From Chromatiales bacterium (GTDB lineage Bacteria; Pseudomonadota; Gammaproteobacteria; Chromatiales; Chromatiaceae): 32,720 bases of DNA. The stretch's first letter is position 1. Each line of letters opens with the position of its first letter. Below the pieces are notes generated by a model. The model had not been told where the DNA came from. It saw only the letters and a program-made list of their open reading frames with translations, and ran no database searches. The DNA is taken from positions 1-32,720 of the forward strand of contig JASFUT010000001.1 in assembly GCA_050050175.1 (NCBI GenBank), in the 5' to 3' direction. Of the stretch, positions 20,178-24,653 are shown in pieces. The position numbers and the translations under genes were made by a program.

Positions 20178-20369
20178 ATGGCGCGTCCGCCCGCAACCGA
20201 CCGGCAGCTCGACGTGGTGCTCCTGCTGGGGCTGTTCGCGTTGCTGTTGTTCGCCTCCCCCATGACCGAGTGGTGGGCCGCTCCAGGCAAGCCCTGGTAT
20301 CTGCCCTACCTGTTCTGGGCCCTGATCATCGGCCTCGGCGGCTGGCTGCAGCGCCGACGCGGCGACTGA
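20178..20369 (+). CDS. Small 2-TM membrane protein, translationally coupled to the SSS-domain kinase (same position as cbrX in Pseudomonas)
   Basis: 63 aa from ATG 20178 (the ORF track starts at a TTG at 20142). Third-position GC is about 90 percent. Hydrophobic segments are VVLLLGLFALLLFASP and YLPYLFWALIIGLGGWL. The stop TGA (20367-20369) overlaps the kinase ATG (20369) as TGATG. No clear SD is visible. Confidence 0.55.
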   Translation: MARPPATDRQLDVVLLLGLFALLLFASPMTEWWAAPGKPWYLPYLFWALIIGLGGWLQRRRGD

Positions 20370-23332
20370 TGCCTCACGAGCTTCCGGTCCTGTTCGGGGC
20401 GGGCATCGCCTACCTGATGGTGCTGTTCCTCATCGCCTACGCCACGGACCGGTCGTGGATGCCGGAGCGCTGGGTACGCCACCCGGCGGTCTACGTCCTC
20501 TCCCTCGGGGTCTACGCCAGCTCCTGGAGCTACTACGGCAGCGTGGGATTCGCCCGGTCCGAGGGCTTCCAGTTCCTCACCATCTATCTCGGGGTGACCA
20601 TCGCCTTCCTGATGAGCCCCGTGCTGCTGCGCCCCCTGCTGCGGCTCACCCGCGAGTACCAGCTGACCTCGCTCGCGGACCTGTTCGCGTTCCGCTACCG
20701 CAGCCAGACCGCCGGGGTCCTTGTGACCCTGTTCATGCTGGTGGGCTCGCTGCCGTACATCGCGCTGCAGATCCGGGCGGTGACCGAGTCCCTGCGCGTG
20801 CTCACCCAGGAGGCGACGCCGCAGGCCCTGGCCCTGGGCTTCTGCGCGATCCTGATCCTGTTCGCCATCCTGTTCGGGGCCCGGCACATCTCCCCCCGCG
20901 AGAAGCATCGGGGGCTGGTGGTGGCCATCGCCTTCGAGTCGCTGGTGAAGCTGGTGGCCCTGCTGAGCGTCGGGCTGCTCGCGGTGTTCGGCGTGTTCGA
21001 CGGGCCGGTCGACCTGGGCCGATGGCTGTCGGAGAACCCGGAGGCGGTGGATGCGCTCTACCGACCGGTCCAGGAGGGGCCCTGGGGCACACTGCTGTTT
21101 CTCGCCTTCGCCGCCGCCTTCCTGCTGCCCCGGCAGTTCCACATGACCTTCACCGAGAACCCGGGGCCGGGCTCGCTCGGGGCGGCGAGCTGGGGCTTCC
21201 CCCTGTTCCTGCTGCTGCTCAACCTCGCCATCCCGCCGGTCCTCTGGGCGGGGACGCGGCTGGGTCTGGAGATGGACGCCGACTACTACGTGCTCGGCAT
21301 CACCCTGCACCAGGGTCCCGCCTGGCTGCCGGTGGTCGCCTTCCTGGGCGGGGTCTCGGCGGCCAGCGCGATGGTGATCGTCAGCACGCTGGCGCTCTCG
21401 GCCATGAGCCTCAACCACCTCCTGCTGCCCGCAAGCTATCCCGACCCGCGCGTGGATCTCTACCGCTGGCTGCTCTGGGGCCGAAGGCTGCTCATCACCA
21501 TGATCATCATGGCGGGCTACGGCTTCTACGAACTGCTCGAGCACAACGAGGGTCTGGTCCAGCTGGGCCTGATCTCCTTCGTGGCGGTGGCCCAATTCGT
21601 GCCCGGCGTGGTCGGCGTCCTGTACTGGCGGCGTGCCAACCGTGCCGGGTTCATCGCCGGCCTGCTGGCCGGCATCGGCTTGTGGACGCTGACCCTGCTG
21701 CTGCCGCTGCTGGAGGCCTCGGGGCTGGCCCACACTGAGCTGAACCTGTCCGCCCTTCGAAGCTCGACGGGTCTGGGCCATTGGCAGTTCGCCACCTTTC
21801 TGTCGCTGGCGTTCAACACCGCCCTGTTCGTCCTGGTATCGCTGATCTCCCGCCAGTCGGCCATGGAGGAAGACGCGGCGCGGGCCTGTTGCACGGAGGC
21901 CTTCACGCCGCTCAAGGGTGTGGTGGCGGCGGGATCCACGCCCGAGTTCACCGCTGCGCTCGCGGACATCGTGGGCGCGGAGACGGCGGAGAAGGAGGTG
22001 CGCCAGGCACTGGAGGACCTGGGCATGTCCGCCGGGGAGACCCGACCCTCGGAGCTGCGCCGGCTGCGCGAGCGCATCGAGCGCAACCTCTCGGGTCTGA
22101 TCGGTCCGCAGATGGCCCATATGATCATCAACCGCCGCCTGGTTCTGGACGAGCGCTCCAGGACCGCACTGGCCGACTCCATGCGCTACGTCGAGGAGCG
22201 CCTGCAGGACTCACGCTCCCGCCTGCAGGGCCTGAGCGCGGCACTGGACAGCCTGCGGCGCTATCATCGGCAGATCCTGATCGACCTGCCGCTCGGGGTG
22301 TGCGCGACAGGTCCCGATGACACCGTGCTGATCTGGAACCTGGCGATGGAGAGGATGACGGGCCTGAGGGGATCGGAGGCGACTGCACGGCCGCTGCAGA
22401 ACCTGCGCGCGCCCTGGGGCCAGACCCTGGCCGGTTTCGCGCGCGTCGAGGACCGCTACATCCACCATCTCGAGGTCAGGCTCGGCGGCCGCGCCCATTG
22501 GTTCAACCTGCACAAGGCCACCACCCTGGACCCGGACCTGAGCCCCGAAGAGCCCGCATCGCGCGCGGGCCTGGTCATCCTGCTGGAGGACCTTACCAGC
22601 CTTGAGAACCTCGAGGCGGAGCTGGCGCACAGCGACCGCCTGGCCTCCATCGGTCGTCTCGCCGCCGGGGTGGCCCACGAGATCGGCAATCCGGTGACCG
22701 GAATCGCCTCGCTCACCCAGAACCTGCGGGAGGAGTCCGCCGATCCCGGAGTGCGCGAGGCCTGCGACCAGATCCTGACACAGACGCGGCGGATCTCGGG
22801 CATCCTGCAGTCGCTCATGGGCTTCAGCCACAGCGGTGCGGTGAGCCGCGCCCCCGAGGAGCTGGCACTGAGGGCGGTGATCGAGGAGGCCGTCGGACTG
22901 GTGCGCCTGACCCATGCGGGCAAGCAGGTGAGCTGCGAGCTGAGCTGCCCGGAGGGGATCAGGGTCGCGGGCGACCGCCAGCGCCTCTCCCAGGTCCTTG
23001 TCAACCTGTTCACCAACGCCTGCGACGCCTCCGGGCCCGGCGACCGGGTGGACGTATACGCCTGGGAGGACGGAGACCGGGTCCGGATCGAGGTCCTCGA
23101 CCAGGGCGAAGGCATTCCGGACAACATTCGCGACGCCGTCTTCGACCCCTTCTTCACCACCAAGGCGCCCGGGGAGGGCACGGGCCTGGGACTGCCCATG
23201 GCCCATCGGATCATCCAGGAGCACCACGGCAGCATCGAGATCGCGGCCCGCCCGGGCGGCGGAACCCGCGTCGTGGTCTCACTGCCCAGGCCGCCCGAGC
23301 GACCCGTCCATGAGCAAGATACTGATCATTGA
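20369..23332 (+). CDS. CbrA-like sensor histidine kinase: N-terminal sodium:solute-symporter (SLC5) domain, linker, PAS, HisKA, HATPase_c
   Basis: 987 aa from ATG 20369 (the ORF track starts upstream, inside the mini-ORF). About 490 aa form a multi-TM SSS-like sequence, followed by a soluble helical linker where CbrA carries its STAC domain. Then come PAS ([26 protein letters not shown]), an H-box ([12 protein letters not shown]), an N-box ([11 protein letters not shown]), and G-boxes ([15 protein letters not shown]). Confidence 0.86.
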
Positions 23333-24653
23333 AGACGAGGCGGTGATCCGCAGCGCCCTGCACCGCCTGCTGGAGCGCAGGGGCTACCGGGTCACCGTGG
23401 CCGAGTCGGTGGAGCAGGCCGAGAGGCAAGGCGGCCTGCAGGGCTTCGACCTGATCATCGCCGACCTGCGCCTGCCCGGCGAGCCGGGCACAGCGATCAT
23501 GGACCGCGCGCCGGACGTGCCGGTGCTGATCATGACCAGCTACGCGAGCGTGCGCTCGGCGGTGGAGTCCATCAAGCGCGGGGCGGTGGACTACATCGCC
23601 AAGCCGTTCGACCACGAGGAGCTGGTGCTGCTGGTCGAGCGCACCCTCAAGCAGCACCGCATGGAGCGCCAGAAGAACGCGCTCAAGTCCGACGTGGACC
23701 GGGCCTATCCGGTGGAGGGGATGGTCGGTCGCTGCGCCGCCATGCAACAGGTGTTCGAGCGCATCGCCAAGGTGGCGCCCACTGACTCCACGGTCCTCAT
23801 CCTGGGCGAGTCGGGCACCGGCAAGGAGCTGGTCGCACGCGCCATCCACGAGCACAGCCCGCGCTCCGACGCCCCCATCGTCGCGGTCAACTGCGCCTCC
23901 ATCCCCGACACGCTGATCGAGTCCGAGCTCTTCGGACACGAGAAGGGGGCGTTCACCGGTGCCGACCGCCCGCGCGCCGGCCTGGTGGAGAGCGCTGACG
24001 GCGGTACCCTGTTTCTCGACGAGATCGGCGAGCTCCCGCTGGCCGCCCAGGCCCAGCTGCTGCGGGTCCTGCAGGACGGGGAAATACGGCGGGTGGGCTC
24101 GGAACGCTCGCGCCGCGTCGACGTGCGCCTGATCGCCGCCACCCACCGCGATCTCAAGCAGCTGGTGCAGGACAACCTGTTTCGAAGCGACCTCTACTTC
24201 CGGCTGCGGGTGGTCGAGCTCGCCCTGCCGCCGCTGCGCGAGCGCGGCGCCGACCTGATCGAGCTGGCCAGGTTCCTGCTGGAGAAGGCGTGCACACGGC
24301 TCAACCGTCCCCGACTCGAGCTCACCCGTGAGACCCTCGACGCCGTCACCGCTTATGCCTGGCCGGGCAACGTGCGCGAGCTGGAGAACGCCATCGAGCG
24401 GGCCGTCATACTGTGCGACGGAGAGGAGATCACGCCGGAGCTCCTGGCCATCGACCAGCCCCCGGAGTCGGAGTCGGCCGCCGGGGCCGCAGCGCCCGCC
24501 GGCGTGTCCCTGGAGGACTACTTCCGGCGCTTCGTGACCGAGAACCAGGACCGCATGACCGAGACCGAGCTCGCCCGCCGGCTGGGGATCAGCCGCAAGA
24601 CCCTCTGGGAGCGCCGCCAGCGGCTCGGCCTCACGCGTACCCCGAAGCGTTGA
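23310..24653 (+). CDS. Sigma-54-dependent response regulator (NtrC/CbrB-like: REC, AAA+ activator, Fis-type HTH)
   Basis: 447 aa from ATG 23310, overlapping the kinase 3' end by 23 nt. REC domain: ILIIEDE ... [14 protein letters not shown]+ domain: Walker A GESGTGKE, the sigma-54 contact loop [15 protein letters not shown], and Walker [10 protein letters not shown]-terminal HTH: [24 protein letters not shown]. Confidence 0.92.

Follow-up and report, generated by a model that had tools for sequence, protein, structure and literature searches.

A CbrX/CbrA/CbrB-family system of a Chromatiales bacterium with an adjacent transporter operon as its likely output

The stretch of DNA analysed here, referred to as the window, comprises the first 32,720 nucleotides (nt) of contig JASFUT010000001.1 of a Chromatiales bacterium, and carries the three-gene module cbrX-cbrA-cbrB on the plus strand at 20178–24653. 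The first gene, cbrX (20178–20369), starts with ATG and encodes a two-helix membrane peptide of 63 amino acids (aa), and it is followed by cbrA (20369–23332), encoding a 987-aa transceptor kinase, and by cbrB (23310–24653), encoding a 447-aa sigma-54 activator of the NtrC family. At the junction GACTGATGCC, the last A of the cbrX stop codon TGA is also the first base of the cbrA ATG at 20369, i.e., a TGATG with an overlap of 1 nt, and cbrB starts 23 nt before the cbrA stop. An earlier model-made description of this DNA from its letters alone (the sequence-only reading) had reported the 63-aa open reading frame (ORF), the TGATG junction, the 987-aa kinase and the 23-nt overlap of the regulator gene with the kinase 3′ end, and all of these coordinates hold to the base. 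It had also likened the module to Pseudomonas CbrX/CbrA/CbrB. This resemblance is real homology: in the P. aeruginosa cbrX-cbrA-cbrB-crcZ-pcnB locus (L081, reached via a CbrX match), CbrA is 51% identical to the kinase over 971 aa and CbrB is 60% identical to the regulator over 469 aa, and the mini-ORF matches the CbrX chain of a solved structure. The G+C content is 62–74% all along the window, and the module shows no compositional break. In a survey with one genome per species, 182 genomes contained a close relative, and the best 80 were fetched as loci with 1.06 Mb of flanking DNA. The order cbrX-cbrA-cbrB is kept in all 80 wherever the contig extent permits; the arrangement is thus not due to chance.

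The N-terminal half of the kinase is a 13-transmembrane SLC5 (SSS/LeuT-fold) domain homologous to that of CbrA. Among solved structures, kinase residues 9–588 match PDB 10ed_A (E = 6e-178), the SLC5-STAC portion of P. putida CbrA in the CbrXA cryo-electron microscopy structure of Orlando et al. 2026 (PMC13488458), with an identity of 51.7% overall and 52.6% over the 483 aligned SLC5 residues. The four-helix bundle of the following linker is 50% identical over 72 residues to the STAC domain (10ed_A residues 518–589). The SLC5-like transporter domain accordingly spans aa ~9–495 and STAC ~517–588, followed by PAS (~634–740), DHp with H770, and the catalytic domain (868–975). However, the Pfam SSF model gave no match to the N-terminal half even at E ≤ 10, and no model of the Pfam library matched the linker. 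The SSF miss was considered as evidence against the SSS fold and rejected, given the 52.6% identity to an SLC5 domain whose LeuT fold has been solved; the non-detection is attributed to the sensitivity of the model. The SSS and STAC assignments of the sequence-only reading thus stand through identity to solved domains, whereas the Pfam hits it had expected for both did not appear. The PAS, HisKA and HATPase domains it had placed after the linker were all recognised by Pfam, i.e., PAS (aa 634–680, weak), HisKA (762–821) and HATPase_c (868–975). In the alignment with Pseudomonas CbrA, H770 falls on the phosphorylated H766. A receiver domain (Response_reg) was sought in the kinase with Pfam and none was found, showing that the kinase is non-hybrid. 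Neither the kinase nor the regulator, nor the transporter discussed below, has an equivalog-level match in NCBIfam.

The mini-ORF product matches the CbrX peptide in the same structure (PDB 10ed_X, E = 3.2e-6), and a CbrX homologue lies directly 5′ of the kinase gene in 78 of the 80 loci, the remaining two being cut by a contig end. The mini-ORF, on the conservation of which the earlier proposal depended, is thus found in every locus where the contig reaches far enough. In 63 loci the cbrX stop and cbrA start share 11 nt (ATGACCTATGA), and a further 10 loci have a 4-nt overlap (ATGA); the 1-nt TGATG overlap is unique to the window among the loci compared, yet equivalent. The peptides are 62–71 aa long and share the motif LF..P...WW(A).....W..PY..W, in which W33, W40, Y44, W47 and I51 are invariant, P. 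putida included. A CbrX profile search recovered 347 clusters, one of them from P. aeruginosa, and no Pfam family. By its conservation, cbrX is a real, selected gene. The persistence of the motif across orders further argues that the peptide itself, and not only its translation, is under selection. The role of the mini-ORF, called unknown in the sequence-only reading, is in part known from P. putida, in which translation of cbrA needs translation of cbrX (PMC6591292), and the CbrX peptide binds TM3/TM8 of the CbrA transporter domain while being dispensable for growth on histidine (PMC13488458). Several CbrX homologues carry wrong labels in public databases, e.g., MFS transporter, UTP-glucose-1-phosphate uridylyltransferase, fatty acid desaturase and RcnA (P0125, P0140, P0157, P0158, P0169, P0176, P0177; PDB 10ed chain X), and the family findings correct these annotations.

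The regulator was described as an NtrC-type sigma-54 activator, and this is borne out by its Pfam domains (Response_reg, Sigma54_activat, AAA_lid_14 and HTH_8, a Fis-type helix-turn-helix), its GAFTGA motif and its identity to CbrB. The phosphorylation site D52 is kept. The 22-residue C-terminal recognition segment of the helix-turn-helix is identical to that of P. aeruginosa CbrB apart from two variable positions. On their sequences, the kinase and its partners are almost certainly members of the CbrXAB family outside Pseudomonadaceae; the grouping of the kinase with CbrA would rest on its architecture, its partner type, the presence of cbrX and the full-length identity of 51%.

The DNA downstream of cbrB carries the features from which the output of the system was deduced. 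An upstream activating sequence at 25988–26035, CGTTAC-n5-GTAACA-n6-CGTTAC-n5-GTAACA-n3-GTAACA, consists of two palindromes and an extra half-site. A sigma-54 promoter-like element, CGGCATGCTTTTCGCT (GG-N10-GC, 26091–26106, plus strand), lies 80 nt 3′ of the second palindrome and 112 nt 5′ of the ATG of SSS656 (26218–28188, plus strand), a 656-aa SSS-family transporter (Pfam SSF, 4e-30; TIGR00813) and the predicted direct target of CbrB. The ATG at 26218 stands behind a conserved AGGGGG Shine-Dalgarno sequence. The next genes on this strand encode a tetratricopeptide-repeat (TPR) protein (29079–29771), which follows SSS656 in every locus of this type, a cyclic nucleotide (cNMP)-binding/CBS/DUF294 nucleotidyltransferase (30445–32331), and an RNase T-type exonuclease (32331–32720), the usual partner of the DUF294 gene, which is cut by the window end. 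Directly 3′ of the SSS656 stop, a 62-nt element occurs twice (28194–28255 and 28323–28384; 97% identical, 129 nt apart); each copy holds a hairpin, CGTTGGTCC-GG-TGGACCAACG, and the element looks like an intergenic repeat of the REP/MITE type. The gap between SSS656 and the TPR gene is ~890 nt in the window and ~330–370 nt in relatives.

The half-sites are the hexamers TGTTAC/GTAACA known as Pseudomonas CbrB subsites, for which the arrangement TGTTAC-N12-14-GTAACA-N15-19-GTAACA was reported (PMC8871633, PMC6296734), but here the spacing is N5. GTAACA occurs five times in the window (1.8 expected), and the exact 15-mer GTTAC-N5-GTAAC occurs three times (20144, 25989 and 26011), with 0.00 expected. 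In the 1.06 Mb of related loci the 15-mer is found 106 times, almost always before cbrX or before the next operon after cbrB. SSS656 orthologues (67–83% identity) are present in 22 related loci, directly after cbrB in 21 and ~1.9 kb after it in L019. Cultured relatives that share the layout of the window include Sedimenticola selenatireducens DSM 17993 (L016) and S. hydrogenitrophicus SB48 (L015). A half-site cluster precedes the orthologue in all 22, with the exact palindrome in 17, and a strict GGCA[CT]-N5-(T/C)(T/C)GC element is present in 18; where both occur, they are 78–106 nt apart. A conserved CbrB-type site cluster and sigma-54 promoter thus stand before the transporter gene that had been named as the apparent target, and these cis-elements make it quite probable that the SSS operon is a direct CbrB target. 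A scan of the window with a textbook sigma-54 pattern (≤ 2 mismatches) gave eight matches against 11.9 expected and missed the candidate at 26091–26106; a minus-strand match at 25750–25765 was rejected as lying inside lrgA.

The content of the downstream operon varies among the relatives. After the palindrome and promoter, one type carries SSS656, the TPR gene and then either the DUF294 gene or acetyl-CoA synthetase (acs); a second carries DUF4212, a VC_2705-type SSS gene, DUF294 and the RNase T-type exonuclease, sometimes then acs; in further types, DUF294 comes first or acs follows directly. The window belongs to the first type, with SSS656, TPR, DUF294 and the exonuclease. Pflu5625, a member of the same DUF294 family, is part of the CrbS/R acetate regulon of P. 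fluorescens (PMC5715377), and in fitness assays (bioRxiv 10.1101/072470) DUF4212 and its SSS partner act as a transporter of lactate and D-alanine. From these associations we infer that the output is the uptake, and probably the activation, of a C2–C3 organic acid. SSS656 itself gives partial matches to PutP models.

In the window, the space between cbrB and the target promoter is occupied by the minus-strand genes lrgB (24796–25617; Pfam LrgB, 3e-84) and lrgA (25518–~25862; Pfam LrgA, 5e-27). The SSS656 promoter architecture is intact despite this pair, which lies outside the conserved module. A minus-strand sigma-54 element that could serve lrgAB was sought by eye at the site cluster, and none was seen. 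LrgAB-type proteins are pyruvate transporters in Firmicutes, so that an organic-acid locus may here have acquired the pair.

In Pseudomonas, the position after cbrB is occupied by crcZ. Rfam searched over the window at E ≤ 1 gave no CrcZ, CrcY or CrcX, in agreement with the earlier statement that no A-rich CrcZ-like small RNA (sRNA) follows the regulator gene, and as a positive control Rfam gives CrcZ at 369 bits in the P. aeruginosa locus. The AANAANAA motifs are scattered over the 32.7 kb, five in all, vs. 14 within ~320 nt of Pseudomonas crcZ, and the gap between cbrB and lrgB is only 142 nt. No crcZ-type sRNA thus lies directly after cbrB, and the predicted sigma-54 promoter there would drive a transporter gene. 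The P. aeruginosa locus has the same layout, with the cbrB stop at 4640, half-sites at 4637, 4654, 4673 and 4695, the sigma-54 element GGCACGGCATCTGC at 4778 and crcZ at 4804; the transporter promoter is therefore in the position of the crcZ promoter. In that locus, the Rfam family P36 (96 bits, 4648–4708) covers exactly the stretch after cbrB in which the CbrB half-sites and a terminator-like hairpin lie, suggesting that this 'sRNA' family may largely represent the 3′ end of cbrB together with the enhancer of crcZ. An Rfam AniS match in the window (28628–28708) was below threshold and dismissed.

The third exact palindrome lies at the other end of the module. This operator, GTTACCTTTGGTAAC (20144–20158), is a predicted autoregulatory CbrB site that overlaps the −35 element and spacer of the predicted cbrX promoter (20142–20170, plus strand), which consists of a −35-like TTGTTA (20142–20147), a 17-nt spacer ending in TG, and the extended −10 element TGATACGCT (20162–20170). 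The cbrX ATG is 7 nt 3′ of the extended −10, and no Shine-Dalgarno sequence precedes it in the window. An alignment anchored at this point reads TTGTTAC-N5-GTAACa, then TGnTAnnnT, then ATG; the palindrome starts ~35 nt 5′ of the cbrX ATG in 66 loci, and TGnTAnnnT stands 6–7 nt before the ATG in 49 of 79 loci (6–10 nt in 54). A distance of 6–7 nt from −10 to ATG would place the transcription start at or next to the AUG, making the cbrX mRNA leaderless, which fits the missing Shine-Dalgarno sequence, and a site occupied over the −35 and spacer should block RNA polymerase. A leaderless cbrX mRNA under autorepression by CbrB is, on these positional grounds, slightly favoured.

Two short G+C-rich hairpins abut the operator at 20113–20142 (GGCGGC-TTC-GCCGCC; GCCGGG-CCCC-TTCGGT then TGTTACCTTT); one of them was called terminator-like by the scan, and no plus-strand gene ends there. 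The divergent neighbours upstream of cbrX (17740–19764, minus strand) encode a 98-aa DUF6394 membrane protein and a 570-aa ion-channel/TrkA-N/TrkA-C protein; the pair is present in about 45 of the 80 related loci, with identities of 75–89% and 57–70%, respectively. A role of the palindrome in serving these divergent genes was considered and rejected, since the palindrome stays with cbrX in loci without them.

The ligand of the kinase was approached through the histidine pocket of P. putida CbrA, which is lined by nine residues. The window kinase keeps seven of them, among those named Y51, S53, W55, F71, Y75 and F406, as well as the Na2-site lysine K196, and differs by A56 to S and F248 to A. 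Six pocket positions do not vary among 79 family members. T stands at position 53 in 78 of them, only S or T is found at position 56, and only A or S at position 248. The proton-coupled transporter core, as judged from this alignment, is conserved, and the pocket appears roomier and more polar throughout the family, as would suit a ligand other than histidine. An organic acid as the substrate, rather than histidine, is accordingly put forward with not quite even confidence.

The loci in which the family was found are labelled Sedimenticolaceae, Chromatiaceae, Thiohalomonadaceae, Acidiferrobacterales, Arenicellales, Thiolapillus and others. The closest proteins, 68–78% identical, come from Sedimenticola, bivalve symbionts and Gammaproteobacteria, and all family members compared are 48–53% identical to P. 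putida CbrA in the membrane half. Two loci, L040 (VRUB01000041.1) and L041 (CAYGAS010000149.1), are from metagenome bins labelled Nitrospira/Nitrospiraceae and also have the module (64% identity) and the same palindrome. They are closest to the Acidiferrobacterales-type loci L026 and L048, and mis-binning or horizontal transfer is thereby suggested. According to reviews, CbrAB is confined to Pseudomonadaceae (PMC8871633, PMC6296734). However, CbrXAB occurs in sulfur-oxidising and related Gammaproteobacteria, in at least 80 genomes at species level, which contradicts this statement. A literature search found no paper linking CbrAB to these bacteria.

Taken together, the following mechanism is proposed. 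The cbrX gene would be transcribed from the extended −10 sigma-70 promoter as a leaderless mRNA. Ribosomes that finish cbrX would then re-initiate on cbrA, as shown in P. putida and suggested here by the TGATG overlap, and the CbrX hairpin would dock on the CbrA transporter domain, as in the P. putida structure and as the conserved motif implies. The proton-coupled SLC5 domain, with its Na2-site lysine kept and two to three pocket residues changed, would bind a small solute, perhaps not histidine, and STAC and PAS would relay the signal to H770, from which the phosphate would pass to D52 of CbrB. CbrB~P would bind GTTAC-N5-GTAAC 80–100 nt upstream of the sigma-54 promoter and activate the SSS656-TPR-DUF294-exonuclease operon, as the conserved cis-elements suggest, while CbrB bound to the palindrome that covers the −35 and spacer before cbrX would repress its own operon, as NtrC does at glnLp. 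NtrB/NtrC at glnAp1/glnLp is the precedent for such dual action: NtrC at upstream sites activates a sigma-54 promoter, and NtrC bound across a sigma-70 promoter represses it. The analogy is functional only, in that sensor, signal and binding sequence differ from those of the window system.

That the window holds a CbrX/CbrA/CbrB-family system with a local, direct output, namely the adjacent transporter operon and not CrcZ, is considered likely, and a number of points weigh against it. CbrB binding, sigma-54 dependence, the transcription start and leaderless translation are all deduced from sequence. The sigma-54 element of the window has three mismatches to TGGCAC-N5-TTGCW. In the Chromatiaceae-type loci L035–L038, L043, L046, L047 and L050, no GG-N10-GC sigma-54 element was seen between the palindrome and DUF4212. 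lrgAB stands between cbrB and the target promoter in the window only, being absent from all 80 related loci. The best solved relative of SSS656 is a choline transporter, a distant match (E = 2e-10). As for the autoregulatory part, a simple sigma-70 scan of the window called no promoter before cbrX or in the lrgA–SSS intergenic region, and cbrXA expression in P. putida is independent of CbrB (PMC6591292), from which autoregulation here would depart. In addition, TGnTAnnnT is partly like a CbrB half-site and may therefore be operator rather than −10; its reading as a third half-site was judged less likely, since the half-site-specific positions vary whereas the −10-specific T, A and final T are kept.

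The search also covered 32.7 kb, and a CrcZ-like RNA or a wider regulon could be elsewhere in the genome. This limit bears most directly on the possibility that the system is a full CbrAB equivalent, i.e., a global carbon-catabolite regulator acting via a distant CrcZ-like Hfq/Crc decoy RNA, with the adjacent transporter as one of many targets. The high identity of CbrA and CbrB and the shared DNA-recognition helix would fit such a role, and P. putida CbrB has at least 61 direct targets, protein-coding operons included (PMC6296734). However, the exact palindrome occurs in 1.06 Mb almost only at two module-linked places, the crcZ position after cbrB is filled by the promoter of a transporter or acs operon both here and in related loci, and the window has neither an Rfam hit to CrcZ, CrcY or CrcX, against 369 bits in the control, nor a cluster of A-rich motifs, all of which make a global role rather improbable. 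A histidine sensor as in Pseudomonas, with the neighbouring SSS protein importing histidine or another amino acid in place of acetate, lactate or pyruvate, is unlikely, but less so. The kinase shares the Na2-site lysine and seven of the nine residues of the pocket with P. putida CbrA, SSS656 has its partial PutP matches, and the DUF4212-type SSS also carries D-alanine; set against this are the systematic remodelling of the pocket in 79 members at F248, A56 and S53, and conserved neighbours that include acs, DUF294 and the exonuclease and no hut genes.

It is very unlikely that the palindromes are bound by another regulator or are mere promoter or structural elements, so that CbrB and the transporter would be linked by synteny only. 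The binding of CbrB to them is a prediction, the published Pseudomonas spacing is N12–14 and not N5 (PMC8871633), and the left half-site before cbrX coincides with the −35-like TTGTTA, the conservation of which may be promoter-driven. The right half-site GTAAC, in contrast, falls in the promoter spacer, where sigma-70 sets no sequence constraint. Moreover, the half-sites are the experimentally defined CbrB subsite hexamers and the recognition helix matches, the palindrome accompanies cbrXAB in many families irrespective of what lies upstream, and the second site is as far from a sigma-54 promoter as enhancers typically are, a promoter type that needs an activator of exactly the CbrB class.

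The remaining part of the window (1–17736) fits a chromosomal gammaproteobacterial context, with no gene diagnostic of sulfur oxidation in it. It encodes a histidine kinase fragment (2–1336) and a dCache-GGDEF protein (3575–5164). The minus strand carries a C-N hydrolase (6126–7274), IspG/GcpE (8061–9317), a Na/Pi cotransporter with a PhoU domain (9362–11527), a Pyr_redox_2 flavoprotein that could be a sulfide:quinone reductase (11851–13122), DnaE (13399–17034) and a hemerythrin-domain protein (17137–17736). Among the related loci, the Chromatiaceae-type ones listed above carry, after cbrB, the palindrome together with a conserved sigma-70-like promoter (TTGACA-N18-GACAAT) and a further GTAACA downstream.

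With a CbrXAB system of local output as the likely reading, the family offers a simpler natural version of Cbr, in which a single obvious output lies next to the genes, the operator is a clean palindrome and the ligand pocket is remodelled. The signal of CbrA is still sought after 25 years (PMC13488458), and the neighbouring transporter and acs genes suggest candidate ligands. The CbrA ligand, the importance of the CbrX peptide and the origin of the crcZ promoter thereby become directly testable questions. As a tentative and somewhat doubtful proposal, CbrXAB may have begun as a self-repressing sensor of an adjacent organic-acid uptake operon, the crcZ promoter of Pseudomonadaceae being the positional descendant of the CbrB/sigma-54 promoter of that operon. 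If true, an ancient local circuit would have been rewired late to give global catabolite repression via CrcZ.

The closest known system is CbrX/CbrA/CbrB of Pseudomonas and Azotobacter (PA4725/PA4726; PDB 10ed), which shares with the window the gene order, a cbrX overlapping the cbrA start, the SLC5-STAC-PAS-DHp-CA architecture without a receiver, the phosphorylation sites (H766/H770, D52), the Na2-site lysine, the CbrX motif and the TGTTAC/GTAACA half-sites, as well as the succession of cbrB stop, CbrB sites, ~100 nt and sigma-54 promoter. The two differ in that the window promoter is predicted to drive an SSS operon whereas that of Pseudomonas drives the crcZ sRNA, and in the host, which here is outside Pseudomonadaceae. 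The palindromes have N5 instead of N12–14 spacing, the pocket positions 53, 56 and 248 differ across the window family, and the palindrome over the cbrX promoter predicts autoregulation here, in contrast to the CbrB-independent cbrXA of P. putida. Pseudomonas has a cbrX/cbrA overlap of 17 nt, compared with 11 nt in most relatives and a single nucleotide in the window.

Other SLC5-STAC kinases, i.e., CrbS/MxtR, RpuS and PrlS, are hybrids paired with LuxR-type regulators (PMC9100948, PMC7918813), and the non-hybrid kinase with an NtrC-type regulator therefore sets the window system apart from them. CrbS/CrbR (MxtR/ErdR) of Vibrio and Pseudomonas resembles it in the SLC5-STAC kinase and in the associated SSS permease, cNMP/CBS/DUF294 (Pflu5625 family) and acs genes (PMC5715377). 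However, CrbS has a C-terminal receiver, CrbR is of the LuxR type and acts at sigma-70 promoters through a different inverted repeat, and CrbS is not known to be preceded or accompanied by a cbrX-like ORF. In Sinorhizobium fredii, RpuS/RpuR likewise has an SLC5-STAC kinase, and its regulator activates the adjacent SSS monocarboxylate symporter operon mctP via a repeat motif (PMC9100948), but the system is alphaproteobacterial, with a hybrid kinase and a LuxR-family regulator that works without sigma-54 dependence. The sensor, the coupling peptide, the regulator and the DNA half-sites of the window system are thus those of known Cbr, while its protein-coding local output and its predicted autoregulatory leaderless promoter would be novel.

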